Below are positions 1,826 to 21,456 of a stretch of DNA of 64,000 bases, one piece after another. The DNA lies in NCBI GenBank assembly GCA_016215625.1, contig JACRIW010000016.1, positions 6,025 through 70,024 of the forward strand, given 5' to 3'. This DNA comes from Candidatus Eiseniibacteriota bacterium. Its GTDB lineage: Bacteria; Eisenbacteria; RBG-16-71-46. How positions within the stretch are numbered: the stretch's first letter is position 1; each line of letters opens with the position of its first letter. The notes under the pieces were generated by a model. The model saw only the letters and a list, made by a program, of their open reading frames with translations. It had not been told where the DNA came from and made no database searches. A program made the position numbers and the translations under genes.

Positions 1826-2908
1826 TCAGCGCCCGCTCGAGCGGGCGTCCGTGAAGACGAACGCGTGAAACGTCACTCCGGCGGCGTCCGGTGACAGCTT
1901 CACCACCCGCTCGCCGTCGCCGCGATCGAACCAGTACAGCCGGCTTTCGCGGACCTCGATGCAGGCCGCGCCGCGTCCGTCCGTGACGACGTCGGCGTCG
2001 CGATCCTGCGCGCGCGGCCACTGGTCGTTCCGCAGGATCCACACCCGCGCGCTCGCGCCCGCGGGCGGACTCAGCACCACCCCGGCGCGGCCGGCACTAT
2101 AACGGATGCTCACGAAGTTCGCCGCCCCGGCCCGCGAGGCGACCAGCCCCTCGCGCTCGAGCCGCCAGCCCCCCACCGGGTAGGGCGTCCAGGCGACACC
2201 CTGCTCCTCGTGCCGCAGCGGCGCCACGAACACCTGCTCCACCCCGGTCGCGAGCCCGGCCAGCGGGCCCTCGGCGACGCGCCCGGCCCCGAGCGGCACG
2301 CTCCGCACCCCGGCCGGCAGCGCCGGGGCGAGCCGCGGCGGCGGCGCCTCGCCCGGGTGCGCGCGTTCGAACCACGCGGCCAGCGCCTCCTCGGCGGGCG
2401 CGAGCGTCCCGACCGTATCCACGACGATCGCGCCCTTCTCGTCCGCCACGAGCAGCCGCGCGCCCTCGGTCATGCCGCCGAGCGCCAGCGCGATCCGTCC
2501 CGCGGGATCGAGCGCGACGGGCACGGTCGGGCAGGCCGCGCGCGTGATCGCGCCGGGCACGGTGCTGTCGGCGGCGAAGGCGAACTCGGGTTCGTGCACG
2601 GCGAGCACGCGCACGCCGTGCGGCTCCCACGCGCGGCGCCAGGCCTCGAGCACGGGCAGCGCCGCGAGCGCGCGCGGATCGGTGTCGCTCCACAGCAGCA
2701 TCACGACCGGCCGGCCGGCGAGCGCGGCGTCGTCGAGCGGCGGCGAGTGCAGCCAGCCCTGCGCCTCGGCGAGGCTCGGGAGCGCGCGGGCGCCCTCGGG
2801 CGCGTCGTCGCTCAGGCCCGGCAGCAACCGTGGCGCCAGCAGCCACGTACTGAGACCGAACACGAGCACGAGCAGGACGGCGGCGAGAATCGCGCGGGGA
2901 GCGGACAT
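1826..2908 (-). CDS. Membrane-anchored thioredoxin-fold (TlpA/redoxin-like) protein lacking the CxxC active site, with a C-terminal extension
   Basis: The M21 start gives MSAPRAILAAVLLVLVFGLSTWLLAP, a signal anchor. A redoxin-like block VVMLLWSDTDPRALAALPVLEAWRRAWEPHGVRVLAVHEPEF carries SDTD where a WCxxC would be expected. Confidence 0.5.
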   Translation of the reverse strand: MSAPRAILAAVLLVLVFGLSTWLLAPRLLPGLSDDAPEGARALPSLAEAQGWLHSPPLDDAALAGRPVVMLLWSDTDPRALAALPVLEAWRRAWEPHGVRVLAVHEPEFAFAADSTVPGAITRAACPTVPVALDPAGRIALALGGMTEGARLLVADEKGAIVVDTVGTLAPAEEALAAWFERAHPGEAPPPRLAPALPAGVRSVPLGAGRVAEGPLAGLATGVEQVFVAPLRHEEQGVAWTPYPVGGWRLEREGLVASRAGAANFVSIRYSAGRAGVVLSPPAGASARVWILRNDQWPRAQDRDADVVTDGRGAACIEVRESRLYWFDRGDGERVVKLSPDAAGVTFHAFVFTDARSSGR

Positions 2909-3043
2909 GACGCGGCAGTATAGCCGCGTGCGTGGTCCGCGCGAGCAGGCCGGAGCCGAATCGAGCATTGGAGCCGGACGCGCGCGTCACTATGCTGCAC
3001 CCCTCGCGCGATCGAACGTGAACGAGCTTCGCCGGAGGAACCC

Positions 3044-3988
3044 GTGACGATTTCGTACACCGAACCGCTGCAGCATTCCTATGCGCGCATGAAGGCGGTG
3101 CTGTTCCGCTCGCCGTTCCCGATCGAGTCGTGGTTCGTGATGGGGTTCGGGGCGTGGCTCGCGGACATTCTCTCCAGCAACAACGGCTCCGCCGGCTCGC
3201 AGTGGAAGACCACGAAGGGCGAGATGGCCGATGCGGCTTCGCGGGCGGGCGACTTCCTCGCGAACCCCACGATGGTCGCTCTGGTGCTCGCGGGGCTGCT
3301 CATGATCGGCATCCTGCTGCTCGTGCTCTCGTGGGTCTCGGCCCGGTCCAAGTTCGTGTTCCTCGAGAACGTCGTGCACGGGCGCGCCGCGTTCCTCGAC
3401 CCGTGGCGCCGCAACGGCCGGCTCGGCAACTCGCTCTTCCTCTGGAACGCCATGATCAGCTTCGCGTGGCTGCTGCCGATCGGCTTCGTGCTGGTGCCGA
3501 TGCGATACGCGATCGTCTCGTACCTGAGCGGCCACGGCTGGACACACGTCCTGATCGGCCCGCTCGCGCTCGGCATCGCGCTCGCGCTGGTGTGCGGGCT
3601 GGCGATCTTCGTCGTGTGCGCGCTGACCGAGGACTTCGTCGTGCCGCTCATGTGGCGCTACGACGAGGGCGCGTGGGCCGCGTGGGCGCGCTTCCGGCCG
3701 CTGCTGTTCGCGCACTTCGGTGATTTCGTCGCCTACCTGCTCTTCTCGGTCCTGATCGCGATCCTCGCCGGGATCGGGCTGCTGCTCGCCGGCCTGCTCA
3801 CGTGCTGCGTCGGGATCGTGCTGATGGTGATCCCCTACCTCGGCACCGTGGTCACGCTGCCCGTGCACTTCGTGTTCCGCGCCTTCGGCCCGATGTTCCT
3901 GCGCCAGTACGGGCCGGAGTGGGACGTGTGGGGGCCTCGCACGGCTCAAGACACGGACAGCCGCAGCACTCCCTCGGCGATCAGCTGA
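3044..3988 (+). CDS. Polytopic integral membrane protein, function unknown
   Basis: A GTG start has GGAGG 5 nt upstream. The sequence has multiple long hydrophobic segments (LVLAGLLMIGILLLVLSWV, ISFAWLLPIGFVLVP, ALGIALALVCGLAIFVVCAL, LFSVLIAILAGIGLLLAGLLTCCVGIVLMVIPYLGTVV). It converges on drmC, with about 43 bp of 3' overlap. Confidence 0.5.
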   Translation: MTISYTEPLQHSYARMKAVLFRSPFPIESWFVMGFGAWLADILSSNNGSAGSQWKTTKGEMADAASRAGDFLANPTMVALVLAGLLMIGILLLVLSWVSARSKFVFLENVVHGRAAFLDPWRRNGRLGNSLFLWNAMISFAWLLPIGFVLVPMRYAIVSYLSGHGWTHVLIGPLALGIALALVCGLAIFVVCALTEDFVVPLMWRYDEGAWAAWARFRPLLFAHFGDFVAYLLFSVLIAILAGIGLLLAGLLTCCVGIVLMVIPYLGTVVTLPVHFVFRAFGPMFLRQYGPEWDVWGPRTAQDTDSRSTPSAIS

Positions 3989-4737
3989 TCGAGATGTGCC
4001 CTCGCGGCCACCGGCGCACGGCCGCCAGTGAGCAGCACGCCCAGCTCCATGTTCGCGTCGAGCGCCGCCTCGGTGAGGTTGGCGCTCGACACGAAGAGCA
4101 CGCTCTCGTCCGCGAGCGCGAACTTCGCGTGCAATAGGCCGCGGCGCCCGCTGGCGTCGGCTGGTCGCCTGTCACGCGGCCACTCGTAGATCTCGATGCG
4201 ATCGGCCAGTGATCGGCCCAATGCGGCCGCTGCATCGCGGGACAGCCGCCCATCGCTCTGCGACTCGGTTTCACCGAAGAAGCGAACCGTGACACCTCGC
4301 GCGAGCGCCTCCCGCAACGCGGCCGCGACCGACTCGATCCGGTAGGCCGCGAACGTGACGATCGAAAGCCGATGCCGTGCAGCGTGCACGACCTGCAGAA
4401 GCGCTTCGTCGGAGCGCCTGAGGGCCTCACCTGAGCGCGGGCCGCTCCAAACGAGGTCCACACGCTCGTGCTCGTCACGCCACCGCGACGCGGCGGCCAT
4501 CGTGCGAAGAGATTCTGCCAGCATGCTCCCCGTCTCGGGGGCTCGCTGAGACCAGGTTGCGAGCAATCGGACCACGGCGTGCCGCACGTGAGGGTCCGCG
4601 AATCGGGCGCCGATGCGTTCGGGCTGAGCCTCTTGGCCCGAGGCGTCACCGCCCAGTTCGTCTGCAAGCCTATCGAGCGTCTCGGGCGTGACCTGACGCG
4701 CAAAGTCGACCACGGCGGCGCGCAGTTCCGGCGTCAT
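3946..4737 (-). CDS. drmC: DISARM DrmC, phospholipase D-family (HKD) nuclease-like protein
   Basis: The HKD motif region is GLLHAKFALADESVLFVSSANLTEAALDANMELGVL. The ATG overlaps the drmB stop in an ATGA configuration. It is the last gene of the helicase-DUF1998-PLD triad. Confidence 0.75.
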   Translation of the reverse strand: MTPELRAAVVDFARQVTPETLDRLADELGGDASGQEAQPERIGARFADPHVRHAVVRLLATWSQRAPETGSMLAESLRTMAAASRWRDEHERVDLVWSGPRSGEALRRSDEALLQVVHAARHRLSIVTFAAYRIESVAAALREALARGVTVRFFGETESQSDGRLSRDAAAALGRSLADRIEIYEWPRDRRPADASGRRGLLHAKFALADESVLFVSSANLTEAALDANMELGVLLTGGRAPVAARAHLDQLIAEGVLRLSVS

Positions 4738-6605
4738 CCGACCAATCCGAAGAACGATCCGGTTTCACGACCGAAGATCGCCGCGAGTGCGGCCCGGTCG
4801 AGATAGCGGTTGGCGCGTTCGCAACTCGTCTCGGGAACGAACAGGCACGCGTGGCAAGCCGCGCCGTGAAGGTCGTGCCCGACCGTCGGGTCGTGCTCAG
4901 CGCAGAGGGGATCGGAAGAGCAGAGCTCTGCTTCCTTGAGCGCCGCCTCGACGAGCCTTCCGAGCTGGTCCGGTTCACCGAGGCGCACGAGTCCGCCCAG
5001 CGTGCCTTCGCTGTCCGGCGCCGCCGTGTACAGAAGCAGGCCCGCCATGGCCGGGCCGTATTGATCGGCATCACGCGAGTAGATGCGTTCGCGCACGCTG
5101 GCGAGTGCGTACCCGCACTCGATCGCCAGCTGACGCATGAGCGCGTGCGCGAGCGAGTGGATGAGCACGAACCGCATGCCCGGAAAACCCGCATCGAGCG
5201 GCGTGAGCTGGTGACGTTCTCGATTGCGACGATGCGCCACGAGGAGCGCGTTCGCGCGCTCCAGGGTCGAGGGCCGGTTCAGCCATTCCTGAACCGCCGA
5301 CTCGTCGAGCTGAAGGAACAGTCCTTCGCCTCGCACCTCGCTCGCGACGACCCACTGAGGAGGGCGGCGAGAGAGCGGCGCGAGGGCGCCTTCGCGGCCA
5401 CCTCCGGGCTCGCCGAGGTCGCCAGGAGGAGAGACGCGCGTGAAGCCAACGAGCGCGCGCACTTCCCTGAGGCGCTCAGCCAGCACGACACGCGCGATCT
5501 GGCGGCTGAACTGGACTGGTGTCTCGACTCGGCGCAGCTGGAAGTCCGCCGACAGCCTGCGCGATTTGGGATCCGAGAATGCTTCCCATTCGGGCGTCCG
5601 CAGGGACACCGGCGCAACGGTCGACGGTTCCTGCTCCATCGTCTGCCTGTGCGCTTCGATCGCGCGCCAGAGTTGGTCGTCGGAGTATCCACTGAGATCC
5701 CGCAGCAGGTTCAGCCCTCGCATGGTCGCCACGCCCTCCACGGAGCGAAGCGTGACCAGTTCCGCCCATCGCGCCGCGACACCGTCCGCGAGGGGATCAG
5801 TGTCGCCCGGAATGTCGAGGGCGGACAGGACGACCGGGAACCAGAGGTTCGAAGCCCCGAGAAGGATCGCACGCGGCGTGACGGTGCAGCGTTCATCGGA
5901 ATAGTCGCGAAGGTGCGGGCGACGCCCCGAGCAATCACCGAGCGCGTCCGCGGCGTCGTCGCCAAACGCGTCGGACATCGGGCGGCTGGCTTCACAACCA
6001 AGACACTTGAGCAAGAGCCCTGAAACGTCGCCTGAAGGATTGATGACGCGCAGTTCGTACGGCCCATGACAGGCGGAGGCACCACGATGCGCGAACGAGT
6101 TCCAGGGAAAGTCGTCCAGGTGACCGGCTTCGCACGCCACCATGAATCGCACCGGAAGCGCCTCGGCACGCGGCGTGACGTGACAGTTCTCGTGCAAGTA
6201 ACGCGTACGGTCCGGGCGGTGCTCGTCGGGCTTCAGCCGGAAGAGTCCGGAACCGATCGCTGCGAGCTTCCTGCAGCGCGTGCAGCACAGCCACCGCGGG
6301 AACGGCGCCACGGGCACACCCACACGGGCATCGCCGGCCTGGCCTTCAGCAGGATCGGGCATCGGCGGCAAGCGAAGGTCCTGAACCTGCGCGCCCAACT
6401 GCTCTCGGACTGCGGCCAGCAAGCGCGGCTCGGGCAACGACCGAGTACGCGATTCGTCCCAGTCGTCCAGTCCCATGATCATCACGGACAGGCCCGGCAG
6501 ATCGGCGATGGCGCCGACTCCGGAGGAATACAGCAGCTGGCTCGGCCGGAGTTCGCCGAGACGAGCGCGCTGCGGCGCGGGCGTGGGATTCGGAGTCGTC
6601 GTCAC
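4734..6605 (-). CDS. drmB: DISARM DrmB, DUF1998-domain protein
   Basis: The N-terminus LGELRPSQLLYSSGVGAIADLPGLSVMIMGLDDW matches the canonical DUF1998/DrmB start. Cys-rich stretches CCTRCRK...CHVTP...C and a C-terminal HGAACHACLF...CERANRYLDRA are present. The listed ORF starts at 6695, but a GTG at 6605 overlaps the drmA stop (GTGA), so that start is proposed. The true start could be either. Confidence 0.75.
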   Translation of the reverse strand: MTTTPNPTPAPQRARLGELRPSQLLYSSGVGAIADLPGLSVMIMGLDDWDESRTRSLPEPRLLAAVREQLGAQVQDLRLPPMPDPAEGQAGDARVGVPVAPFPRWLCCTRCRKLAAIGSGLFRLKPDEHRPDRTRYLHENCHVTPRAEALPVRFMVACEAGHLDDFPWNSFAHRGASACHGPYELRVINPSGDVSGLLLKCLGCEASRPMSDAFGDDAADALGDCSGRRPHLRDYSDERCTVTPRAILLGASNLWFPVVLSALDIPGDTDPLADGVAARWAELVTLRSVEGVATMRGLNLLRDLSGYSDDQLWRAIEAHRQTMEQEPSTVAPVSLRTPEWEAFSDPKSRRLSADFQLRRVETPVQFSRQIARVVLAERLREVRALVGFTRVSPPGDLGEPGGGREGALAPLSRRPPQWVVASEVRGEGLFLQLDESAVQEWLNRPSTLERANALLVAHRRNRERHQLTPLDAGFPGMRFVLIHSLAHALMRQLAIECGYALASVRERIYSRDADQYGPAMAGLLLYTAAPDSEGTLGGLVRLGEPDQLGRLVEAALKEAELCSSDPLCAEHDPTVGHDLHGAACHACLFVPETSCERANRYLDRAALAAIFGRETGSFFGLVG

Positions 6606-9600
6606 GCGCGGCCCTCCGGCGGTAGCGCATCCATCTGGTAGTCGTCGAGCAGCAGTGGCACGCCGGGTTCGACATCGCGAAGAGAGCCCAGACACGTGAA
6701 CGGATCTCGCTCACCGAGCTCGGCCTGCCTGAGCAGGCCCGTCGTCGAACCGTCACGGCGCGCGTCGTAGCCCAACTGGCTGCCGAGCGCGGCCCTCCTC
6801 ACTCGCGAGCTCCACTCGTCCAAGCGGCTATCGATCATGTCGCGCACCTGTTCGACGCGCTCTCGCTGGCCAGTCACCGCCTCCACACGTCGCAAGATCG
6901 CTTCCCGCGCGACCTGAACATGCGCGTCGTCGCGACTGAAGGCTTGCGCCTGCTCATTGGCGTTGAGCCGGGAGTCACGCAGGCGCACGAGCGAAACGAG
7001 TACGCCGGACAGTCCGCGGTCCAGCGCTCGAGGGGCAAACGGCGTGACCGAGAGGGCCTCGACATGGCGATAGAACGTGGCGTGGAACTGGCGGAACCTT
7101 TCGTAGTGCGACAGGTCGCGCGGCCGTGCCCAGTTGAGGGCGACGAGGACGAGCCCGGGGTGCCGGCGCCCCACTCGGCTCGTGGCCTGGATGTACTCAG
7201 AGGTCGTCTTCGGCTGCCCCGCCACGACCATGAGCCCGAGCCGCGGCACGTCCACGCCCACACTGACCATGCTGGTCGCGAGCAGCACGTCCACCGGTGC
7301 CGGCCCTGCGAACTCGTTTCGCTTGGCACGTTCGCGCCGCTCCTCGGCGGCGGCGGCGGAAAACTGCAGTTCGAGATCGTCCAGCACCACGGGAATCTGC
7401 GACGACGGCAGGCGCGACGTGAGTTCGCGCACGTTGGGGCGAAGCCGACGTCGGAACCCGAGGCGATCGCCCTGTTCGAGCCGCGTACGCACGTCGTCTT
7501 CGACCACGCGCCGCATGCCGCCCAGGTCGCGCAGGGTGTTGAAGTACCCGACCAGAGTCATCCACGGATCGGCGTTCTTGTCCCACTGCTCGTACTCGGT
7601 CTGTGCTGCGAGCATGGCGGCGAGATAGGCGCGGATGTAGGTATTCTTCACACGGCGGCCCGGTGCGCAGATGCCCATGTAGCGTCGGCCGGGCGTCTCG
7701 TGGACCGGACGCCTGCGCGCGAAGAAGTTGTCGGACACGTCGAGTCCGTGCGGAGGAAAGACCTCGAGCCTGCGCACGAAGAGATCGCGCATCTGCTGAT
7801 CGGCACGCCGAATCGTCGCAGTGGACGCCACGAGCTTGGGGCGCACGCGGCGGCCGTTCACAGTCCAGCTCGCAAGCTCGTCGAGCGCGGTCTCGTAGAG
7901 CCCGACGAGGCTGCCGAGCGGCCCGCTGATCAGGTGCAGCTCGTCCTGGATGACGAGATCCGGCGGGCGCAGCGGCCCATGCGCACGAGTCTGGACTGCC
8001 GAATGACCTCCCGTCGCGTTGTGCCGGCTCGCGTCCTCGAGTTCGGGCGAGCGGAACCCGTGTCGCGGGCACAACCCGTCCACACGACCGAACAGCGTCT
8101 GCGTCGCGCCCGCCCACGGCATGCGCGCGAACTTGTCCACGGTGGCGATGAGCAGTGCCGGAGGATTGCGGTAGATCTCTTCGTCCACCGAGAGCAGCGG
8201 CAGCCCCTCGCCCGGCGCCTGCGCCATGGTGAACGGGCACAGGCCCTGTGAGTCGGAGCACGCGATCACGGTACGAGCGCGGCCGCGCGCATAGGTCTCG
8301 ACGTGCACGTTGGAGCGCAACGAAAGCTTGGAGCCGCACCACGGACAGCGCGTGATCTGCAGCGCATGCACGCCGTGGAATTCACCCTGCTGCCGGCGTG
8401 CTCGCGTCACCGACTCGTCGCTCTCGCGAGTCGAGTTGGGCGTCGTGGTGCCACCGACCCAGAGCCCAATGCGGAAGGGCGTTGCGCCGAGTCGGGTGTC
8501 GCCATTGCGCTGCGCGTCGCGCCGCAACCATTCGAGCGCGCACATGAGCGCCGCCGCGCGCTGGTACTGCTGAACGGTGAGAAGACGCAGCGTGTAGCGC
8601 ATGAGCACGGCCACGCCGTGTTCACCCGAATGGCCTTCGATCGGGCCCTGAAGGCGGCGCAGCACCATGGCGTACGCCGCGAGGCCGAGATACGCCTCAG
8701 TCTTGCCGCCGCCCGTGGGGAACCAGAGCAGATCGCCCGCCGCGCGTTCGGGATCGCTGCGATCCGGATGATGCAGGTCAGTGAGCGAAGGAAGATTCAG
8801 CAGGATGAACGCGAGCTGGAATGGGTACCAGCGGCCGCGCTCGGTTGCGGGGATATTCGATTCATCCACCGCGACGCCTTTGCGGCGCTCGCGGATCAAC
8901 CAGCCACGCTCACGCTGCAGCGCCATCGCGCGGTTGGCATACCGGAACGCCTCGGCCGCGAGCGCGTCGCCCCCCAGCAACTGGATGCCCGCGCGCATGC
9001 GCTCCAGCGCCGCGTCGGCCTTGGCCATGGCTGCTCGCGCCACGTCGGCGTGCGGCTCCAGCTGATCCTCGCCTCCCTCAATGCGCTTGCGCTGCCGCTT
9101 GATCCAATCGGCGTAGGCCGCAATCAGCGGTTCCAGACGAGCCGCGAACTCTTCGTCGCGGCTCTCGCCCAGTACGCGCATGTCGAGTTCGAGCGTCGCG
9201 AGCCTCTCTTCGTCCTTTGCCGTGACGGGATCCATGCGAGCCACGTCGTATGAGGGGAGCGACTCCGTCCGAACGCTCGTCGCTCTCGACGGATCACTTT
9301 CCGCTAGCGTCCACTCGACGCTGACGCCGTGACCCACCGCGAACTCGAGGTCGTGGCGATGCAGCATGGCCAGCTCGCGTTCCTCGGCGGCGGCCGCCGG
9401 ATCGCCAGCACTGCCGACTCGCTCAATCGGCCGCCGAATGAACGCTGCCGAGCCGTCGGCCGAATGAACTTCGAGTTCGCACTGGAACAGCCAAGCCTCG
9501 TCCCGATTCACCTCAGGTGCTTCCTGCTCATTGACCAGGAACACCGTCACGATCCACTGGCTTTCGCGCGCGCGTACTCGACCGGTGACGCGAACCCCGG

Positions 9601-10102
9601 AACGCTCGGCGTCGGGAACCCACGGATCAAGCGGCCCGTCGGCGAGCGACACGGCCGGCGAAGTGGCTTCGAACGGCCGACGCAGCCAGACCGTCTTGGG
9701 CTTGCCGGTGGGAGTCTCGATCGATGAGCTGGGGCCCTTCTCGTAGCGCCCCCACCGCGCCGTGAACTTCAGTTCCGAGCAGGAGCGGTCCACCGCGAAC
9801 GTGAGCCCGAACGACTGCGGCAGCACCGTGACGCGCGAAGCGCTACCGGCGTCCGAAGGCCCTTGCGCGTCTTCGTCTTCTGCCGCGCCCTCCAGGTCTT
9901 CGTCCTTCTCGGGCGCCAGCACTTCGTCGCGTGGCGCCAGCGTGCCGACGATGTAACGCTCGCCGGGGCGCTGTTCGAGCTCTTCGTCGGGGCCGCCGAG
10001 CGGTCCGACGAGATCGGCGCGCACGAGCCGAGCGATGTCGTCACGAATCTCGCGGGGCTCGGGGGCCGCGAGTGCGGGCGTGGGATCGGGGGGCGTGGTC
10101 AA
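6602..10102 (-). CDS. drmA: DISARM DrmA, large DExH-box helicase-domain protein
   Basis: Motif I is [21 protein letters not shown], motif II is [16 protein letters not shown] and motif VI is [16 protein letters not shown]. The N-terminus is RYIVGTLAP. The gene is 1166 aa. The annotated start appears to be a non-ATG codon (TTG) overlapping the upstream nucleotidyltransferase stop, so the exact start is uncertain. Confidence 0.8.
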   Translation of the reverse strand: [1166 protein letters not shown]

Positions 10103-10920
10103 TCGGTGGCCCTCATGAGTTGGAGCAGCGCCTGCATGAGCTGCCAGCTTGCTTCTCGCGCCGCCTCGGGATCATCCGTTTCGGCCAGGGCCTGCGCCAC
10201 CAGCGTCGGTCCCTCGCCGTGAGCAGTAGCAAACAACCCCGAAAGGTAGGCCAGAGCGCGCCGCGTGGCGTCGCCTGTCACGGGATGATCGAGGAGAACG
10301 CGCAGTCGCGCAGCCAGCGGTTCGGGTCCCACGGCCATCAACAACCGAAACACGTCGAGCGCATCCTTGGGCTCGACTCGCGATGGTCCCTGCGTCACGC
10401 GCTCCCCGAGCTTGTGGGCCTTGGCCACGAGCAGCGCTGCCGGTCCTGCCACGCGAACTTCGAACGCACGGCCGTCCGCCGGGTCGAGCGCCGACAGGCG
10501 CAACGTGACCACGTCCACGATGCAGGCTTCGATGCCGGAGGCCTGTCTCGCCGCGTTCGTCGCGTGCGGCGGCATGCGCGCGCCCCGCCTGCCCGGAGCG
10601 CCGCCGAGCGTAGCCGGCACCATCAGATCGACGTGCGTATCGTGTGGACCGCGCCAGTTGCCGGGGTTCGGACCGAGCACGAAGCCTGCGGCGAGCATAC
10701 ATTGTTCGATTCGCGGGTCGTTGCCGATCGAACGGGGATCGAGCGCCAGATCGGCGTCCTCGGTGAACGGCGTGACCTGCAACTCGCCTTCGCCCGTGTG
10801 CAGGTACACGGCCTGCGCACCGATGAGCACTGTGTTCTCGCGGTGCGGCCCAAGCGCCTCGTAGGCATCCAGCAGCACGGCTCGCGCGATCACGTACCTC
10901 GGGTCAGCTGCGCCAGGCAT
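10099..10920 (-). CDS. Nucleotidyltransferase-fold protein, putative toxin partner of an AbiEii/GSU2403-like two-gene module
   Basis: An ATG start is used. The pattern IGAQAVYLHTGEGEL...TEDADLALD resembles a minimal nucleotidyltransferase G[SX]-x(n)-DxD. Its 5' end overlaps the upstream HTH gene by 17 bp and its stop overlaps the drmA start. Confidence 0.5.
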   Translation of the reverse strand: MPGAADPRYVIARAVLLDAYEALGPHRENTVLIGAQAVYLHTGEGELQVTPFTEDADLALDPRSIGNDPRIEQCMLAAGFVLGPNPGNWRGPHDTHVDLMVPATLGGAPGRRGARMPPHATNAARQASGIEACIVDVVTLRLSALDPADGRAFEVRVAGPAALLVAKAHKLGERVTQGPSRVEPKDALDVFRLLMAVGPEPLAARLRVLLDHPVTGDATRRALAYLSGLFATAHGEGPTLVAQALAETDDPEAAREASWQLMQALLQLMRATD

Positions 10921-12040
10921 CTTCGTTCTCTCCCATCCACTCGATCAGGGCTTCTGCCAGGCGCGGGTTGCGATCGCCGCTCGTCAGCAGGTCTGCCGCC
11001 GCCTGGCTGGGCGCCACATACCACAGGCCCTCTTCTTCCCACCTGCCCTGATAGACGGCCTCGTCACCCGGTTCCGCCAGCAGCACATTGGCTACCGCGG
11101 CCGAGGCCCCAAGTTCGAGTTCGCGCGCCAGCGCCGGAACATCGTCGGTGTACATCATCGCCAGTCGCGACGTGGCCAGCGTTCGCCGGCGTTCGGCCAC
11201 GAAGGGCCCGGTAATCGCGTATCGGCGTTGCGTCGCGCGTAGTTTTTCGAACATCGGGCCGAAGCCTCGCAGCGCGAGATACCGTTCGACACGGTTCGAG
11301 CGGGTGAACTGATACTCCTGCGCCCAGCGTTGGAGCAGCGCACGCCAATCGAGCTTGAGAATCGGGCCGTTCGAGTCCTTGTCCACGATGGCATCGCGCT
11401 GCAGCAGTGCGACGACGCGCGACACCATGGCGGGCGAAGTCACCGCCTGCCGCGCAAGTTCACGAATACCGTAGGGCGGCTTGCGGTCCAGCAATGCGCG
11501 CACGATTCGACCTGCCACCGGTCCGCGGAGCGACTGTAACGGCCGCGCCTCGGGTGCCGGGTCGCGCTCGCTGCCCGTGAGCTTGAGGAACAACGCCGGG
11601 CGCTCGCTGGCGATTCGAACGTTGCCGGTGGAGTCGGCGTAGTTCCATCCGGACTCGGTGAGCAGGTCGCGGCTGCGTGGCGAGAAGTAGCGGCTGACGA
11701 TCATGCGCGCCGGCGGTGCCTCGGAGCGCTCACTCACCCGGGCGATCGACTTCGTCGCGCGCTCGAACGCGAGCAGGATGCGCATGGCGTCACGAGGCTC
11801 GAAACGTTCGCGCACTTCGATCGCCAGCGTGACGCGATCGTCGCCCGCGATGATGTCGGCCCAGGCGTCCACCACGCCGTCCGATTCGAAGTCCATGATC
11901 TCGCGTGTGGCGTATGCGCCGCGGCCGGACTCGCTCGCGAGGCGCGGGCCTTCGAGCCGCCACGCCTTCGGGAGTTGGGCGGCAAGGCGGCGGAACACTT
12001 CGTCCAAGAGGACTGTTTCAGGAAATCGCTTGTTTCTCAT
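10904..12040 (-). CDS. Winged-HTH transcriptional regulator, AbiEi-like putative antitoxin/regulator
   Basis: The central wHTH-like segment is RIVRALLDRKPPYGIRELARQAVTSPAMVSRVVALLQRDAIVD. The ATG (M21) at 12040 is chosen over the TTG at 12100. It is immediately upstream of, and overlapping, the nucleotidyltransferase gene. Its 5' region is palindrome-rich. Confidence 0.5.
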   Translation of the reverse strand: MRNKRFPETVLLDEVFRRLAAQLPKAWRLEGPRLASESGRGAYATREIMDFESDGVVDAWADIIAGDDRVTLAIEVRERFEPRDAMRILLAFERATKSIARVSERSEAPPARMIVSRYFSPRSRDLLTESGWNYADSTGNVRIASERPALFLKLTGSERDPAPEARPLQSLRGPVAGRIVRALLDRKPPYGIRELARQAVTSPAMVSRVVALLQRDAIVDKDSNGPILKLDWRALLQRWAQEYQFTRSNRVERYLALRGFGPMFEKLRATQRRYAITGPFVAERRRTLATSRLAMMYTDDVPALARELELGASAAVANVLLAEPGDEAVYQGRWEEEGLWYVAPSQAAADLLTSGDRNPRLAEALIEWMGENEDAWRS

Positions 12041-12269
12041 GGCGTGCAACAGGCTATTGCATGCAACAGCGGGGAGGCAACGGGGAAGTTGGATTGCCAA
12101 GACTTGGCGTCAACATGTTGCTGCGCAACACATGTTGCATGAATCGGCCAGTTGCGCGCTGTGCGTAACAGCGTTCTTCGCGCAACAGACGACGGCGAAT
12201 CCGGACAACGGCTGGGTCCGATGCGCCTGTCTGCGAAACGCCAGCCGAAGCCGCCCACAACGCCAGCCC
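12041..12269 (-). promoter_or_regulatory. Putative promoter/operator region with an array of GCAACA/TGTTGC inverted repeats
   Basis: There are perfect palindromes TTGCATGCAA (~12057-12066) and CAACATGTTG (~12111-12120). A near-palindrome GCAACACATGTTGC is at ~12125-12138. A direct repeat TGCAACAG occurs twice, and AGTTGCGCGC...GCGCGCAACAG flank about 20 bp. GCAACAG-like half-sites occur at least six times in 230 bp. Confidence 0.4.
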
Positions 12270-13256
12270 TCAAGGCCGAAGCGCTTTCACCCCGCCCCAT
12301 GTGTTTCGCCGCGCCGCGGTCGGGGCCACGCCGAATACCTGGATGCGATGGTTCCAGCGATCTGCGACGTAGACGTTGCCGTCGTCGCCCACTGCGACGC
12401 CCGTCGGCGAGGAGAACTGGCCGGCCGCAGCGCCGTGCGTACCCCAAGCGCACAGGAACGCGCCGTCACCCGTGAACTTCTGGACGCGATGATTGAGCGC
12501 ATCCGCGACGTACACATTGCCCAGCAGGTCCACGGCGACGCCGTGCGGAATATTGAACTGGCCCTCTGCGGTTCCCGCGCTGCCCCACTGCGTGATGAAC
12601 ACGCCGGACGACGAGAACTTCTGCACGCGGTTGCCATTCCTCTCGGCCACGAAAACGTTGCCCGATCGATCGACGGCGATGCCGTAGGGAGCGGCAAACT
12701 GTCCTGGGCCGGTACCCGAACCGCCCCACACCGCCAGCAACAGGCCGTCGGGGTCGAACTTCTGAAGGCGGTCGTTGCCCTCTTCCGTCACGTAGACGGC
12801 ACCCGTTTGATCAATGGCCAAGAATGCGGGGTAGCTGAACTGGCCCGGCGCTGTGCCGTAACTTCCCCACATCTGCTTGAGCGCGCCGTCGGGACCAAAG
12901 CGCTGAAGGCGATGGTTCTGCCACTCGACGACATAGACGTCGCCGTTCGGACCCACGCCGATTCCAGCAGGCGTGTAGAACTGCCCGGGCGCCCCACCCT
13001 GCGAGCCCCACATCGATTCGAAGGTGCCGTCGAGCGCGAACAGGCTCACCCGATGTCCCCACTCCTCGGAGACGAACATCGAGCCGTGGCCGTCGAGCGC
13101 CATCGCGATAGGCTCGATCATCTGGCCGGGCGATGTTCCGTAGCAGCCCCATGCGCTCAGAAAGGCGGGGGGCGCCTCCGAGGCTGCAAGCGGAGTCACT
13201 GCGATCAAGAAGACCGCTGCGCACATGATCAACTCGAACAAACGTCTGCTCGCCAT
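12270..13256 (-). CDS. NHL-repeat (six-bladed beta-propeller) secreted protein
   Basis: The M188 start of ORF 12270..13817 gives the signal peptide MASRRLFELIMCAAVFLIAVTPLAASEA, with GGGAG upstream. There are about six repeats of the ...GxxPGQFxxPxGIAVDxxGNVYVAD..NHRVQKF type typical of NHL repeats. Confidence 0.7.
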   Translation of the reverse strand: MASRRLFELIMCAAVFLIAVTPLAASEAPPAFLSAWGCYGTSPGQMIEPIAMALDGHGSMFVSEEWGHRVSLFALDGTFESMWGSQGGAPGQFYTPAGIGVGPNGDVYVVEWQNHRLQRFGPDGALKQMWGSYGTAPGQFSYPAFLAIDQTGAVYVTEEGNDRLQKFDPDGLLLAVWGGSGTGPGQFAAPYGIAVDRSGNVFVAERNGNRVQKFSSSGVFITQWGSAGTAEGQFNIPHGVAVDLLGNVYVADALNHRVQKFTGDGAFLCAWGTHGAAAGQFSSPTGVAVGDDGNVYVADRWNHRIQVFGVAPTAARRNTWGGVKALRP

Positions 13257-13325
13257 CGAAGAAACTCCCTCTGCTAGGCTGCAGCCCTCATCGTCGGCGT
13301 GCCGAAGCTCACGCATGGAGATCTC

Positions 13326-13481
13326 ATGACACAGCTCAAACCCGGCACTCGCGTCGTGCGCCTCGAAACCGGCGAGCAGGGAACAGTCGAGGAGCAGTTC
13401 ATCGACGGCTATGTGGCGCTGACCTTCGATGACGGTCGGCCCGCGGAGCTCTCCGCGTCGAGCCTGCGCCCCATCGGGTAG
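13326..13481 (+). CDS. Possible small protein (51 aa), hypothetical
   Basis: MTQLKPGTRVVRLETGEQGTVEEQFIDGYVALTFDDGRPAELSASSLRPIG has a non-GC-shadow-like composition, with GGAG 5 nt upstream of the ATG. It lies in a 577-bp gap between two minus-strand genes. Confidence 0.3.
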   Translation: MTQLKPGTRVVRLETGEQGTVEEQFIDGYVALTFDDGRPAELSASSLRPIG

Positions 13482-13833
13482 ATCACGGCAGCGTTCGAGG
13501 TTGCTCGCGTTGTTGACGGCCCACTCTCTCGGGCGGGCCGTCACAGCGAGGCAACTGGCTCGGGGGGAGTCGCGATGGCGACTCAACCAATCGCGACGGC
13601 AAGATAGCAGCGAGCTCTTCGGAGTCAATCTCGACGTGGCTCTCGGGCTCGCTGTCCTCGACGCACGTGCTCGACTGCTGAGTGTGGCGTGATCGGACCT
13701 CCGCGACGGCGACCTCCAGGCGTCAGGCTCTCGCCTCCTCAAGTAATCCAAGGCCGTCGCGTGCACACCGGGGCCGCGGAAATCGCGGGTGCAAAGGTGG
13801 TCGGGTTCTTGCCGCACTCAGGCGGTGTGGCCA

Positions 13834-16800
13834 TCAGTCTTGGAGGCCGTCCCCATCGAGCAACCCCTCATACCCGCTGTAGCCTCGCTCAGAGAACTGG
13901 TTCACAACTTCGCGAGCCGTTTCGCGCAGGTTCCCACCCTGCGCGACCGCGAGCCGGATGATCTTGGTCGCCGGCTCAGTCCAGTTGTGCAGCCCCAGCG
14001 GCATGAGCGGGCGCGAAGCGGCCAGCAGCAGAAGTTCGAGCGCGCTGGCGAGGTCGGTGTCCGCGATCTTCCCGGTGCGCTCGGGAAGCCAAAGATCGGC
14101 AGCGACGCCGGGACTCGCGCGCAAAGCCAGCTTCGCCATCTCGGCGACCCATGCATCCGGAAACGCCGAGGCACGGCAGAGGGGTTCCCAGTTCGACAAC
14201 TCGGCGCTCTCCGCGGTCGAGCTGGAAGCCGCAGCGATCCGAACCCGCCGCTCCACGACGGCCATGATGCGCTCGAGCGGTTTCGCTCCGATCTCGGGAT
14301 TGCCCTCGACGTGCCAGCCCGCCTGACCAAGAAAGTGTGAGCGCAGCTCGGGGCTCGCGTGCTCGAAGAACGCTTCCAGCAGTTCGTCGAACCCCGGCAT
14401 GACTTCGGCACAGTAGGCATTCAAGAGCAGTACGTGCACCGCGAGCGCCTGTCCCAGGTCGTTGGTTCGCTCGTTGGCTGACTCTGAGCCGAGGCCGCGA
14501 CATGCTCCGAGATAGCTCTCGTAAAGCATTGGCACGACTCCGAGGTGAACCTGTCCGAACAGCAGGTACACCTCCCAGGCATCGCCAAGTCCCCCGAACA
14601 TCCGATCCACCGACGCGCGCAACCACTCACGATCAAGATAGAGCAGGTTGGGCAAATAGTGGGCGAGAACACTCGGGATGGCTCCGCACGGCTCACGCCC
14701 GACGTCAAGCTTTTCGTCGAACAGTGCGCGCACTTCAGGCACTTCCTCGAACCAGCTGTTCGGCGTTCGCCCTTCGGACTTGAGCATTCGCGCAACCCAG
14801 AGCGCGTACTCCACCGCCGCATGCATCGCGACTCCGCGAACGGAATTCAGGGCAATCACCTCGGGCTCGGCCAAGCGGCCACGGAGGCGCTCATGCTCCA
14901 TCGGCTCAGGATCAGCATCGTGAGCAAGCCGTTCGATCACACCCCACACACGGGCGCGGTGCTCGAGCCGTAGCCCCAACTGCCCGCGCAATGCGCGCTG
15001 AAGGAGCGTTGCCATCGCTCGAAGCACTTCGCTGTGTCTTGAGAGCGCCGCGCCTGGTTCCGACGGTGCGGTAGGAGCCGCGATGCCCACGATGTGCTCG
15101 CACAACTCCAGAATGACGAGCCAATCCAGCGTCGTCTCGCCGCCGTGCTCGTCGGCAAGCCCTTCGAACAGGGCACGCACATACGCCAGGTCGAGCCCAC
15201 GCTGGAACTCGAGCGCAGCCCCGGACCACTCTTCGCGCCGTGCCTTGATCACCTCGACAAGCTCTCGCGCCAGCCCCTCCGGCGAAGGCGTCATCATCTC
15301 CGCCGCCGGGATCCACGCGCGGAGGTAGCTGATCACTTCTTTCGGGGACATCGCGCGAAGCTCATCGCTCGCCAACGGGCTCGTCGGACCAACCCAGCTG
15401 AAGCGGCGGAAGCCCCGTGGGGCCCGCTCGGCCGACCTCGTGCGACTCAGCGACTCGTAGAGGTCGCGTGCCTCGCCGCTAATCGAGCCGGCAATCGGCT
15501 TCAGCCAGTAGTACTGCCACGTCTCCTTCTGCTCCGTACGCTGCGCTTCGCGGTCAGCCATCGCTTGGTCCGTGACATCGTCATCCTGCTGGCTCGGTCC
15601 CGCCAAGATCCAGGCAAGAATCATTTCCTGATCGGCCTGTGCGAGGTACTCCCACGCTTCGGAGAGCAGGAGCCGGTATTCGATTCGGGCAAGTGGGTCG
15701 TCGAAGATCGCTCGATCAATCAGCCGGTCGAGCGCAGGCCGCGAACTCGGATCAATCTCCGCCAGCAGGAACAGCTGAAGTCGACGGAAGATCGCCTGTG
15801 GGGGTACGGCAAGGTGACCAAGGAAGTCACCAAGATCCTCGGGGTGACTCTCGAGGTGCCTTCGTGCCACTCGCACGACGGCAGCGACGAGCGCCTCCGC
15901 GATGCCGTCGGAAAAGTCCTCTTCCGCACCGAGATCATCGGCCCACATCCACGAGTAGTCGTCATACCCGGCGCCATGTTCGGCGTGGACAACCGCCCGG
16001 AGCTGGCGAACAAGAGTCTGGTGGAGTTCCAGACCGCACGTGGGTAGCAGTGCCGCCTCGCACTGCTTGAGGATCATTTCGTACGCGTGGGGATTCAGCC
16101 GCGGATTAACCCTGCGGAAGTGATCGGCACCTCCGCTGCTCGGCTCATTGCAACTGAGCATCAGACTCAACAGACGCAAAGCCGCCCGATGCTGGCCGCC
16201 AGTCGCGAGGCGAACGCACAGGTCACCGAGCTGGAATGGAACTCGAAGTGAGACTCCGCGCTGCAACCAACGGCCGAATCTCGTTACGAGCCTCGCAGCC
16301 ACGTCTGGTGGCATAGCGACCGCTGCCGCGACGAGGTCGATCTGAATCAGTGCGTTCCGAATGTCGCCACCTCGTCGCAAGATGAACTCGGCAATTTCAT
16401 TCGGGCAACTCGCCGCGATTCGAGCCATGTACTGCGACTGAGGCCAGGGCGGAAAGCTGATGATGTCGCCCTCGACGACCGGCTCGTAAGGTGATTCGAA
16501 GTACCCCTGAGCGTTTAGAAAGCTGAACCACTGCGCACCAGCGTACTCGACGAGAAAACGTCGAAATGCTTCGGGCTTTGAAATGAGCGCTTGGATGCTC
16601 TCGGAGGCACCGGGTGAACTCGGATCCTGTCGCCCAAGCACTTGAAGTTCGGGAAGTACCGTGAGGATCGGGCCGTGGATCGAGTGCAGAATCCCGAGCA
16701 AACGGCTCCACTTCGTTTCAAATTCCGGCCGCTGGTCCTCAAGCCGGGCCAGCCCCTTCCTGTAGTGACACCGACCCACGAACCATTTCTGAAGTCTGTT

Positions 16801-20300: not shown

Positions 20301-21456
20301 AGTGCGTACCAGCCTCGCGGCCCTCAAGGAACGCGAAGCGGTCGGGATCGAACAGCGACCCGCCGTATGCGGGGAATGCCAGCGCCTCGTGCCGCGCGCC
20401 CTCGTGAATCAAACGGAACGTGGCCAGCAGACGGCCCCATGCGTCGTAGCGCGACTCCAGCACTTCCTCGCCGTGCTGGTCGGCGGCTTCGCGCAGCTGC
20501 TCGCGCAGCGTGGACACGGCGTAGTCGCGCGCGTAGGACTCGCTGCCCTCGCCCATCAGCCCTCGTTCTTCGGCGGCAAACAGGAACACCAGCCGCATCA
20601 TCACGGTGAGCGCGCCTTCGTACACCTCCACCGGAGGCACCCGGGACAGCAGCTGGCCCTGCCGCGTGCGGTCGGCGGTGTCGAGCGCCTGCACCAGCAC
20701 TTCGACGGCGCGACGCACCTGCTTGCCGAGCTGGTCGGTCACCAGATGCTGCTTCGATCGGCTGCGATCGAGCATGGCCTCCAGCGTGTGCTCGGCCGCC
20801 ACGGCGAAGAACCGCGACGACTCGAACAGCGCATAGAACGCGGTCAGGGTGTCGCGTTCATCCAGCCACAGGTCCACGTCCCAGTGCGCCACACCGGGCA
20901 TCTCGCCGGGCACCAGCTGCACGAACGTCCACTCGGCGCCGTTGGTCACCAGCCCCAGTCGTACGCCCGTTCCGCGCAGCAGCTCGACCATGCGGTCGGT
21001 CGGACTCGCTCGCCACGTGCGGTCCTGCAGCGGGCGATCCAGCTGCTGCCGGGGCGTCACGATGCTCACCAGCATGCGAACCCGCTGCCCATCGGGATGG
21101 CCCTCGGGGTTCTGCAGCAACAGATCGGGCGACAGCGTCTCACGGCCGAGCGGCGCCTGCGCCGTGGGCAACGTCACGCCCGCGCCCAGCGCACGCACAC
21201 AGCCCGATGGCCAGCCGAGGAAGTCGCGCACCACGTGCTCGCACCACTGGCGGTGCAGCGCCAGGTCGGGGCGCGGGCCCGAGACGGCGTCGCGCCATTC
21301 GGACAAAGCGTCGCGCAGCCACTCGAACTTTTCGGTGGGCGGCGCGGCCATCCCCTGTGGCCATACCTCCACCAACACCGGCGGCGACAGGAACGGCCCT
21401 GCGGGCTCGGCAAAGCGGAGCCATTCGAATCGCTGGCGCATCGGGCGGCGGCTCAT
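17308..21456 (-). CDS. drmMI: DISARM DrmMI, large N6-adenine (gamma-class, Eco57I/PglX-like) DNA methyltransferase
   Basis: Motif I is VCDFAMGSGAFLVQACRYL and motif IV is SMVANPPFLGGQ (NPPF). The HYTPRTLTEPIV block is typical of these approximately 1300-aa defence methyltransferases. The ATG at 21456 overlaps the drmD stop (ATGA). The listed ORF extends to 21516. Confidence 0.8.
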   Translation of the reverse strand: MSRRPMRQRFEWLRFAEPAGPFLSPPVLVEVWPQGMAAPPTEKFEWLRDALSEWRDAVSGPRPDLALHRQWCEHVVRDFLGWPSGCVRALGAGVTLPTAQAPLGRETLSPDLLLQNPEGHPDGQRVRMLVSIVTPRQQLDRPLQDRTWRASPTDRMVELLRGTGVRLGLVTNGAEWTFVQLVPGEMPGVAHWDVDLWLDERDTLTAFYALFESSRFFAVAAEHTLEAMLDRSRSKQHLVTDQLGKQVRRAVEVLVQALDTADRTRQGQLLSRVPPVEVYEGALTVMMRLVFLFAAEERGLMGEGSESYARDYAVSTLREQLREAADQHGEEVLESRYDAWGRLLATFRLIHEGARHEALAFPAYGGSLFDPDRFAFLEGREAGTHWRDTAAQPLAVSNRTVLHLLTALQELEVEVPGGRERRQLSFRELDVEDVGHVYEGLLDHTAVRAAAVEAPILGLGGSLEPEVPLPKLEALEQKGRKELLDYLEEQTGRTRKTLEKALAQPVVRDEARARRSCGNDEQLYVRVKPWLGLVRDDTLEAPVVIRAGSVYVTAGDSRRTSGTHYTPRTLTEPIVRHALEPVVYRGPAEGLPEAEWQLRSARELLTLKVCDFAMGSGAFLVQACRYLAERLLDAWSAAESAAPGAVRVTPEGEPSTGAAGERLVPLDDEERRVVAMRLVADRCLYGVDRNPMAVEMAKLSLWLVTLQKDRPFNFLDHALRAGDSLLGVTRPEQLRYFDLGEAAGQKLQTFERLVAPALTAASEKRRELEGFPVLSAADAERKAALLAEADARLAELRALGDLLVGATLAGHAKDVNAKSVMGAARDRAADLFDTPEGSAERTARLSELRAEGQRLLDAAKPPRGMSRRPFHWAIEFPEVFEQGGFDSMVANPPFLGGQKITGPMGSDYRTYLVKVVAHGATGSADLSAYFMRRVAELLRDGGAIGMIATNTIAQGDTREVGLDTLLADGYVCPRAVASQKWPGVANLEVALLWVRRGAWAGGHVLDGNAVGGITPYLTVPGSVEGKPYRLAANAGKSFQGSIVLGMGFVLEPEEAQALIARDPRNRDVLFPYLNGEDLNSRWDQSPSRWVINFHDWPLDRASAPEGYEGPVAAEYPECLRLIEERARAERERLAAGDATARDRARRWWQFARPTMGLYAAVHSLDSVLVACRVTKFIAHHSANPAQVFDVGLNVIVDAELWAPLESTIYEAWVRAYASTLESRVRYVLTDTFEVFPFHLASLHAREVRGQLVEHRLRVYEAEREGLTATYNRFHSPAEKSPDIEQLRALHVELDRAVSDAYGWTDLALGHDFHATKQGTRFTLSDPARREVLARLLQLNHDRHAEELAQGLHDKPAKKSAAKSRAKSPKPAPPKPEAPDLFS

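Follow-up and report, generated by a model that had tools for sequence, protein, structure and literature searches.

A probable AbiE-type toxin-antitoxin cassette of the AbiEi_2/GSU2403 branch directly before drmA in a DISARM locus of Candidatus Eiseniibacteriota

The AbiE systems of S. agalactiae and Lactococcus are bicistronic toxin-antitoxin (TA) modules in which the regulator/antitoxin gene comes first and overlaps the gene for a nucleotidyltransferase (NTase) toxin, and in which the antitoxin joins a winged helix-turn-helix (wHTH) to a toxin-neutralizing C-terminal domain (PMC3985639, 10.64898/2026.01.19.700257). Motifs I-IV have been defined in the toxin AbiEii, mutation of K173, R180 and D192 abolished toxicity of the S. 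agalactiae protein, autoregulation by the antitoxin AbiEi was demonstrated experimentally, and COG4861-COG4849 was predicted to be a second AbiE-type pair (Dy et al. 2014, PMC3985639). Inactivating auto-phosphorylation induced by the antitoxin has been described for AbiEii (acceptor T65, before D67) and for the MenAT toxins of M. tuberculosis, MenT1 (T39, before D41) and MenT3 (S78) (10.64898/2026.01.19.700257, PMC7450476, PMC11375011). Here we analyzed two adjacent genes, geneA and an NTase gene, nested in a locus of the defense system DISARM (defense island system associated with restriction-modification) within 64,000 nt of a Candidatus Eiseniibacteriota genome (assembly GCA_016215625.1, contig JACRIW010000016.1, positions 6,025 to 70,024; hereafter the window). 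With a probability of about 0.72, we read the pair as an autonomous TA cassette, of abortive-infection type, that belongs to the AbiEi_2/GSU2403 (PF12281) branch of the AbiE/MenAT superfamily. Profile comparisons show both components to be homologous, if remotely, to AbiEi_2/AbiEii pairs.

For comparison we used 84 loci reached through geneA, about 90 loci overall (labeled L0xx where they need to be told apart), and an alignment of 38 members of the geneA family. All of the relevant genes of the window, which has a GC content of about 68%, are on its minus strand, and the pair and its junctions are arranged as follows.

10904..12040, minus strand: geneA, from ATG 12040 to TGA 10904, 378 amino acids (aa); predicted antitoxin and autorepressor
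10099..10920, minus strand: NTase gene, from ATG 10920 to TGA 10099, 273 aa; predicted toxin
10904..10920, minus strand: 17-nt overlap of geneA and the NTase gene, read from the sequence; same length in other loci
10928..10934, minus strand: Shine-Dalgarno (SD)-like GGGAGAG, 7 nt 5' of the NTase ATG and within the conserved WMxENE codons of geneA, read from the sequence
10099..10102, minus strand: stop-start overlap TTGA ('tcaa' on the plus strand), where the NTase TGA shares 4 nt with the TTG of drmA
10110..10114, minus strand: SD-like GAGGG, 7 nt 5' of the drmA TTG; kept in L006 and L085

The gene coordinates of the original prediction were exact, and the 17-nt overlap it described was borne out both by the sequence and by the homologous loci, where exactly this length recurred in 46 of about 75 loci from many phyla, with ATG, GTG or TTG at the expected NTase start. 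Across the overlap, the frame of geneA reads ..D-A-W-R-S-stop and that of the NTase M-P-G-A-A-D, and the conserved ..A-W-R of the former (with W376) and M-P-G of the latter (M1-P2-G3) are encoded by shared nucleotides. Also as described, the NTase stop and the non-ATG start of drmA share four nucleotides, with all of the genes on the same strand. In the NCBI annotation of this metagenome-assembled genome (MAG), both proteins (HZA61_01790 and HZA61_01795) are 'hypothetical' and called shorter, with 264 aa for the NTase and 367 aa for geneA; these starts lie 9 and 11 codons 3' of the conservation-supported ones, and the 17-nt overlap is thereby lost. The 264-aa call is probably too short because the MPGxxDP N-terminus is conserved in the NTase alignment, and for geneA the start at 12040 is favored over the 367-aa call, or over TTG 12100 (the start of the maximal open reading frame, ORF), because the ATG stands at a fixed distance from a conserved promoter/operator described below. 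The TTG start of drmA is supported by other loci, which have ATGA (L006), GTGA (L085), and ATGA (L005) at this junction, followed by the conserved peptide TTPPD.TP.LAAPEP; L007 has a 10-nt gap between the two genes. The shorter NCBI calls, together with the many spurious ORFs that occur on both strands at such a GC content, could be taken to mean that the overlaps are annotation artefacts (spurious ORFs, wrong starts) without real coupling; however, this is extremely improbable in view of the thousands of homologues, the confident AlphaFold2 (AF2) models, the conserved residues encoded by an overlap of identical length in so many loci, the fixed distance from promoter to ATG, and the alternation of ATG, GTG, and TTG at one drmA start position.

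The evidence for the toxin came from family membership, motifs, and fold. The NTase reached the gathering threshold of PF12281 (NTP_transf_8, GSU2403-type), with 26.5 bits against a cut-off of 26.3, and its homologues, of about 270 aa, number more than 1700; most of them carry a precomputed PF12281 match, and some are named 'GSU2403 family' by NCBI. One homologue (P0061) matched both PF12281 and PF08843. The invariant columns of the family alignment were G34-A35, T53-x-D55-x-D57, D98, K167, K170, R174, R181, and K185-D186-x-x-D189, from which the following features were assigned.

G34-A35, minus strand: NTase motif I
10750-10764, minus strand: predicted phospho-acceptor and motif II, T53-x-D55-x-D57
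D98, minus strand: third acidic residue
10354-10422, minus strand: motifs III-IV, K167..R174..K185-D186-x-x-D189

All four AbiEii motifs (hG[GS], DhD, K...R of motif III, and +DxxD of motif IV) were present in the NTase. As in AbiE, the pol-beta motifs I-II are accompanied by motifs III-IV in which the spacing from K167 to R174 (+7) and from R174 to D186 (+12) is identical to that of K173, R180, and D192 in AbiEii. T53, which is invariant and precedes the first catalytic Asp by two residues, coincides in position with the known phospho-acceptor sites, an [ST]-x-D arrangement that is also that of MenAT, and its phosphorylation is predicted by analogy. The AF2 model of the NTase had a predicted local distance difference test (pLDDT) score of 93.6, and in a Foldseek search of the PDB its seven best matches were all MenT3/TglT (E 2.6e-4 to 4e-3, template modeling score 0.47-0.53, probability 1.0), spanning the full length of the protein over about 300 columns, as for a two-lobed fold of the MenT3/AbiEii kind. 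The nucleotidyltransferase fold on which the original prediction depended was therefore recovered. Moreover, in hhalign the NTase family profile aligned with WP_069207650, a plasmid AbiEii that passes PF08843 (24.1 bits, cut-off 22.5), at 94.9% and E 4e-8 over 224 columns, with the TxDxD and KDAxDV segments in register.

At E 0.016-0.04, the Foldseek matches also include ANT(2'')-Ia, viral poly(A) polymerases, and FKRP, which would suit a benign enzyme (a small-molecule or antibiotic NTase, or a signaling enzyme) with geneA as its transcriptional regulator, and our literature search yielded no toxicity data for PF12281. We nevertheless hold this explanation to be very unlikely, as it is the MenT3 toxin that supplies the seven top full-length matches, the AbiEii-specific motifs III and IV and the Thr at -2 are invariant, the AbiEi_2 antitoxin domain of the partner co-varies with the NTase, and matches of the cGAS type are insignificant (E >= 0.33, probability <= 0.13). 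The last result also led us to reject a CBASS/CD-NTase assignment.

The AF2 model of geneA (pLDDT 86.9) resolved into three domains.

11576-12040, minus strand: N-terminal domain, aa 1-155, PD-(D/E)xK-like, with D58 and E75-x-R77
11348-11533, minus strand: wHTH, aa 170-231, from the AF2 model, with weak Pfam HTH matches at aa 177-237
10907-11347, minus strand: AbiEi_2-type C-terminal domain, aa 232-378, from the AF2 model and family-level AbiEi_2 matches

The antitoxin assignment was made at the level of the family, where a wHTH is followed by an AbiEi-type C-terminal domain, while the window protein taken alone gave weak HTH matches. Specifically, PF09952 (AbiEi_2) covered the whole C-terminal domain in 15 of the 38 family members, two of them (P0177 and P0155) above the gathering threshold, and there was no match to AbiEi_1, AbiEi_3, or AbiEi_4 in geneA. 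The family profile aligned in hhalign with a protein named 'type IV toxin-antitoxin system AbiEi family antitoxin' by PGAP, which itself scores on AbiEi_2, at 99.7% and E 5e-27 over 306 columns, a span that takes in the N-terminal domain. A HMMER profile of geneA searched against PDB sequences returned generic HTH matches only. The Foldseek matches of geneA were weak, none reaching E<=0.001; they comprised EndoMS/NucS (N-terminal domain), a large number of wHTH regulators, and TM1012/MenT1 (C-terminal domain). The family is very large, with 7527 clusters at 50% identity for E<=1e-3 (4024 for E<=1e-10) and at least 380 relatives in species genomes from many phyla. As the original prediction had noted, the HTH of geneA is central; the idea that this marks a divergent family did not hold, since a central HTH is the standard architecture of this AbiEi_2-type family, in which an AbiEi core stands behind a nuclease-like N-terminal domain. 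The AbiE-like identity proposed for the pair is thus supported by the PF12281 match, the motif spacing, the MenT3 fold, and the hhalign results for both toxin and antitoxin. The AbiE-type TA assignment likewise stood, though not its type IV label, since a 2026 preprint (10.64898/2026.01.19.700257) moves AbiE out of type IV and into type VII.

The N-terminal domain has an AF2 topology that fits the alpha-beta-beta-beta-alpha-beta core of PD-(D/E)xK proteins, with D58 and E75-x-R77 at the expected positions, although the supporting matches are weak: EndoMS was matched with a Foldseek probability of 0.94 but an E of 0.023, and sequence matches to Hjc and NucS were faint. Nuclease catalysis by this domain appears doubtful because about 10 of 38 family members lack the Glu and the Lys is Arg in the window protein; DNA sensing by it would be speculation. 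The domain also holds a strongly invariant segment, Y-A-D136-x-T-G139-N140-x-R142. In the C-terminal domain, Foldseek listed TM1012 (probability 0.98) and the MenT1 toxin (probability 0.92) at E 0.03-0.07, and there is a conserved T-G-[SP] motif and no DxD; the domain may be a degenerate NTase-like fold. That it is a duplicate of the partner toxin was rejected, as hhalign against the NTase family was negative (0.1%); the weak structural resemblance remains.

The pair behaves as a conserved module. An NTase homologue directly followed geneA in about 72 of the 84 loci, in the bicistronic, antitoxin-first, overlapping order known from AbiE, and NTase homologues found independently on long contigs were also preceded by a partner of 307-369 aa. 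The contexts were mostly housekeeping genes or mobile-element remnants, about half of the loci had no same-strand downstream gene, and for these reasons we regard the pair as autonomous. In about 80 of the roughly 90 loci, there was no DISARM gene nearby. Among the Eisenbacteria-type loci, identity in the C-terminal domain of geneA tracks NTase identity and that in the N-terminal domain does not, which fits the C-terminal domain as the putative toxin-contacting part, as in AbiEi.

Upstream of geneA, comparison of the loci pointed to a promoter and an operator.

12116..12187, minus strand: four more GCAACA/TGTTGC sites arrayed upstream, the palindrome CAACATGTTG among them, from site counts; similar arrays in L005, L006, and L014
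12075..12080, minus strand: -35-like TTGCCT, read from the sequence; aligns with TTGAC(T/A) in homologous upstream regions, TTGAC being the form of most loci
12062..12068, minus strand: putative operator repeat 1, TGTTGCA, a direct repeat with 17-nt spacing
12051..12056, minus strand: -10-like TAGCCT, separated by 18 nt from the -35 and by 10 nt from the ATG; TAnnnT is conserved there
12045..12051, minus strand: putative operator repeat 2, TGTTGCA, exactly 17 nt downstream of repeat 1, with 4 nt left to the ATG
12031..12036, minus strand: inverted half-site GAAACA, within geneA codons 2-4 (M-R-N)

Six of the 19 GCAACA sites of the whole window fall within 12046-12187, where about 0.04 would be expected. 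Across phyla the same layout recurred, with a -35 (TTGAC), TGTT[G/C/T]CA, a TAnnnT -10, a second repeat 4-6 nt before the ATG, and an inverted copy in codons 2-4. The double repeat was found in 40 of 84 homologous upstream regions as against 12 of 2342 background windows (about 90-fold enrichment), and in 22 of these 40 loci the locus-specific GTTNC core was repeated exactly, in inverted orientation, no more than 24 nt 3' of repeat 2. The variable bases co-vary within a locus, as in L013 (CGTTCC three times), L075 (TGTTGCC three times), and L073 (TGTTTCA three times), and the residues before the invariant S207-R208 of the recognition helix vary with the operator base (M-G, S-C, T-L-T). Since the ATG follows 10 nt after the -10 box, the mRNA is predicted to have no leader, or hardly any, with transcription probably starting near the geneA ATG. 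We attribute the conserved M-R-N N-terminus of the antitoxin family to a constraint at the DNA level, because the inverted operator half-site encodes it. This strong comparative evidence argues for autoregulation by the geneA wHTH through the putative operator repeats.

Taken in this way, the cassette would work as follows. The NTase would be the toxin, adding nucleotides to the 3'-CCA ends of tRNA and arresting translation, as AbiEii and MenT do; geneA would be both antitoxin and autorepressor. Its AbiEi_2 C-terminal domain would bind the toxin and probably trigger inactivating auto-phosphorylation at T53, as in AbiE and MenAT1/3, and its wHTH would bind the three TGTTGCA-type repeats that straddle the -35 and -10 boxes and the start codon, repressing a leaderless-type promoter. 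We infer toxicity, tRNA target, and phosphorylation by analogy with AbiE/MenAT biochemistry. In the Eisenbacteria lineage, the cassette would have been inserted right before drmA, with drmABC most likely on the cassette transcript and translationally coupled to it.

Several results weigh against this reading. Of the models that the original prediction had named, the GSU2403-type PF12281 matched, although marginally and with a best matched stretch of only aa 16-62, whereas a Pfam search at E<=10 gave no match of the NTase to PF08843 (DUF1814/AbiEii) and none of the window geneA to any AbiEi model, AbiEi_4 included. PADLOC and NCBIfam were blank for both proteins, motif I of the NTase is G-A instead of G-[GS], and a HMMER profile searched against PDB sequences found no solved relative of the NTase. 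In geneA, the position of the catalytic Lys of PD-(D/E)xK enzymes is Arg, and the role of the domain is unexplained. The correlation between operator and recognition helix is confounded by phylogeny, and a sigma-70 consensus scan found no promoter, the hexamers being weak and the promoter visible only across the compared loci. For drmABC, an internal drmA promoter may play a part, as may read-through from genes upstream. Finally, our search of the literature turned up no experiments on either PF12281 toxins or AbiEi_2 antitoxins.

Compared with AbiE, which likewise has promoter repeats and a spacer of about 17 nt between -35 and -10, the window cassette differs in several respects. Its toxin falls on PF12281 and not PF08843, and its antitoxin is AbiEi_2-type and not COG5340-type, with an extra PD-(D/E)xK-like N-terminal domain of about 155 aa. 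The genes overlap by 17 nt as opposed to 4 nt in AbiE, and the cassette is fused to drmA. The predicted operator comprises three 7-mers, two direct and one inverted, at a leaderless-type start, whereas AbiE has two inverted repeats, of 23 bp each, and a 26-nt leader. The MenAT systems of M. tuberculosis (MenT3/TglT-MenA3/TakA and MenT1-MenA1) supply the best structural match to the NTase, and by analogy tRNA 3'-CCA nucleotidylation and neutralization by antitoxin-induced auto-phosphorylation would be expected for the window pair; however, there is no sequence similarity detectable by HMMER, the antitoxins are of other families, and the mycobacterial loci are not linked to DISARM. Also similar are the COG4861-COG4849 pair predicted by Dy et al. 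and AbiEi_2 (PF09952) pairs such as WP_069207651/WP_069207650 of Sphingomonas panacis. The latter share the regulator-then-NTase order, a three-domain antitoxin that aligns end to end with the window family, and an alignable toxin profile (the hhalign results given above), and differ in the toxin family, PF08843 as against PF12281. There, too, nuclease-type genes follow on the same strand: on the plasmid NZ_CP014169 (L093, 2854-6927), the annotated AbiEi_2/AbiEii pair leads into genes for a Metallophos 'DNA repair exonuclease' and for a large hypothetical protein, joined by 4-nt overlaps. By its gene order, this is another cassette heading a nuclease-type operon.

The window pair is nested in a DISARM locus, as the original prediction had stated, and this locus is a complete class 1 system on one strand and in the usual order (drmD, drmMI, Dsr1-like and NHL genes, geneA, NTase, drmA, drmB, drmC), with very strong scores for all five DISARM genes.

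21453-24728, minus strand: drmD, NCBIfam DISARM_DrmD (NF038317), 1268 bits
17308-21516, minus strand: drmMI, PADLOC DrmMI, 1652 bits
12270-17298, minus strand: slot cargo of the window, a 1154-aa Dsr1-like protein (PADLOC Dsr1 1.4e-31, no Pfam match) and an NHL propeller
6602-10102, minus strand: drmA, the DISARM helicase gene, an ORF of 1166 aa, PADLOC DrmA 6e-298
4734-6695, minus strand: drmB, PADLOC DrmB 1e-75
3946-4737, minus strand: drmC, PADLOC DrmC 9e-62

It differs from class 1 DISARM in having four extra genes between drmMI and drmA, namely those for the Dsr1-like protein and the NHL-repeat propeller, followed by geneA and the NTase gene. Neither member of the pair is in any DISARM model or has a match in PADLOC, and they did not qualify as DISARM components; a preprint on YprA/DISARM makes no mention of such a pair. 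The slot between drmMI and geneA holds different cargo in each locus, while geneA and the NTase gene are constant neighbors of drmA.

L006, 2548-9110: SIR2_2, a 386-aa protein of unknown family, a propeller with FlgD_ig, and Schlafen/AlbA_2
L085, 1596-3959: dCMP deaminase and a 386-aa unknown, of the same size as in L006
L086, 3-2657: a Dsr1-like gene only

In the window, GC content falls to 0.61-0.645 in this cargo slot, and neither a tRNA gene nor an integrase marks the island. Two ORFs 3' of drmC (1826-3949, minus strand; 319 and 380 aa), without a match in Pfam, NCBIfam, or PADLOC, may also belong to the island cargo. As listed, the ORFs of drmD and drmMI share 64 nt (21453-21516), and the DrmD model match begins at residue 44 of its ORF, so that the true start probably lies downstream of the listed GTG at 24728 (24600-24728).

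The order geneA-NTase-drmA was found in the window, in three contigs (L005, L006, and L007) from a second Eisenbacteria MAG, and in L085, while the contig of L086 ends right after the NTase gene; across these five other loci, geneA is 51-72% identical to the window copy. Neither the geneA/NTase nor the NTase/drmA junction holds a terminator-like site. Given the overlaps, the SD-like GAGGG, and the terminator-free junctions, co-transcription of the pair with drmABC and translational coupling is the most economical reading, and on sequence grounds we consider co-transcription well supported. The other MAG, isolate SJ457, holds three diverged copies of the arrangement (geneA identity to the window of 72% in L005, 67% in L006, and 51% in L007), which reflect either a genome with several DISARM loci or a bin of mixed strains; the L005 copy of drmA loses its reading frame after about 45 codons. 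Between the window and L006 and L085, the first 100 residues of DrmA are 82-87% identical, as compared with about 50% overall for the NTase and 37-43% in its C-terminal half, so that either the cassette appears to be evolving much faster than drmA or it has been exchanged by recombination with its position kept.

In other loci, 10 same-strand genes started within about 115 nt 3' of the NTase gene, and five of them were conflict genes.

4-nt overlap with the NTase gene, another locus: type IV restriction enzyme
1-nt overlap with the NTase gene, L049: TOTE primase-helicase gene
+114 nt from the NTase gene, L008: second TOTE primase-helicase gene
4-nt overlap with the NTase gene, another locus: radical-SAM, viperin-like gene
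+103 nt from the NTase gene, L041: jetA

Such neighbors fit the known enrichment of TA modules in defense islands and also leave room for a regulatory 'driver' role. One may accordingly ask if the pair is instead a functional part of a DISARM variant, in which geneA would be a dedicated repressor or sensor, its NucS-like domain sensing foreign or damaged DNA and gating drmABC, and the NTase would act as part of the DISARM response, for instance as a back-up abortive arm. We think this improbable. The retention of the pair before drmA in five loci (and up to the contig end in a sixth) while the upstream cargo varies, the stop/start overlaps with drmA, a DrmA that is 79-87% identical where the NTase is about 50% identical, so that position is retained while the cassette diverges, and the tight (1-4 nt) or close (about 100 nt) joining to conflict genes, the tight cases in other phyla, are what such a role would lead one to expect; yet one insertion in one lineage may underlie all of the DISARM-linked cases, TA modules are generally enriched in defense islands without functional coupling, and the contexts elsewhere, mostly housekeeping genes or mobile-element remnants and in about half of the loci with nothing downstream on the same strand, weigh against it. 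The sole other DISARM adjacency outside the Eisenbacteria-type lineage, L061 (Dormibacteraeota), has a truncated NTase and no tight junction: geneA and the NTase fragment stand just 5' of drmD-drmMI (11028-14921), and the NTase ends after about aa 140 and is followed by about 300 nt of unrelated sequence, for which reason we rejected L061 as an independent tight fusion. The DISARM genes of L061 look frameshifted, which long-read assembly may explain.

A broader proposal, and a tentative one that we would not expect to hold, is that AbiEi_2/GSU2403 cassettes are portable, self-repressed 'driver' modules for defense operons. At the head of drmABC in Eisenbacteria, the repressor, possibly DNA-sensing, would gate the DISARM effectors with the NTase as abortive back-up, and the same wiring would have arisen independently before type IV restriction, TOTE, and viperin-like genes. 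In BrxR/CapW-type systems and in CapH-CapP of CBASS, a gene for a DNA-binding repressor lies immediately 5' of diverse defense operons on the same strand. The resemblance to the window is an analogy only, as the families are unrelated, and a regulator of the window kind comes with a toxin partner and is mostly found alone.

Read as an autonomous cassette, the pair is novel in combining AbiE-superfamily membership with another toxin Pfam family, a three-domain antitoxin, a predicted leaderless three-repeat operator, and, in one lineage, a fusion with DISARM at the level of the operon. To find a TA module in a defense island is not surprising, and should the cassette not control drmABC, it would be one more such module and ordinary; the conserved wiring to drmA and the very large uncharacterized family nonetheless make it a reasonable experimental target. 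If the reading is true, the locus would be a concrete example of an AbiE/MenT-type TA cassette physically fused to a DISARM effector operon, and control of drmABC by the cassette, if real, would give DISARM, a system whose activation is poorly understood, a further level of regulation. The conserved promoter, probably leaderless, and the co-varying repeats would offer a ready-made system for studying antitoxin specificity. More widely, the pair, which PADLOC does not flag, points to a whole, experimentally uncharacterized branch of PF12281 toxins and three-domain AbiEi_2 antitoxins that comprises thousands of clusters.

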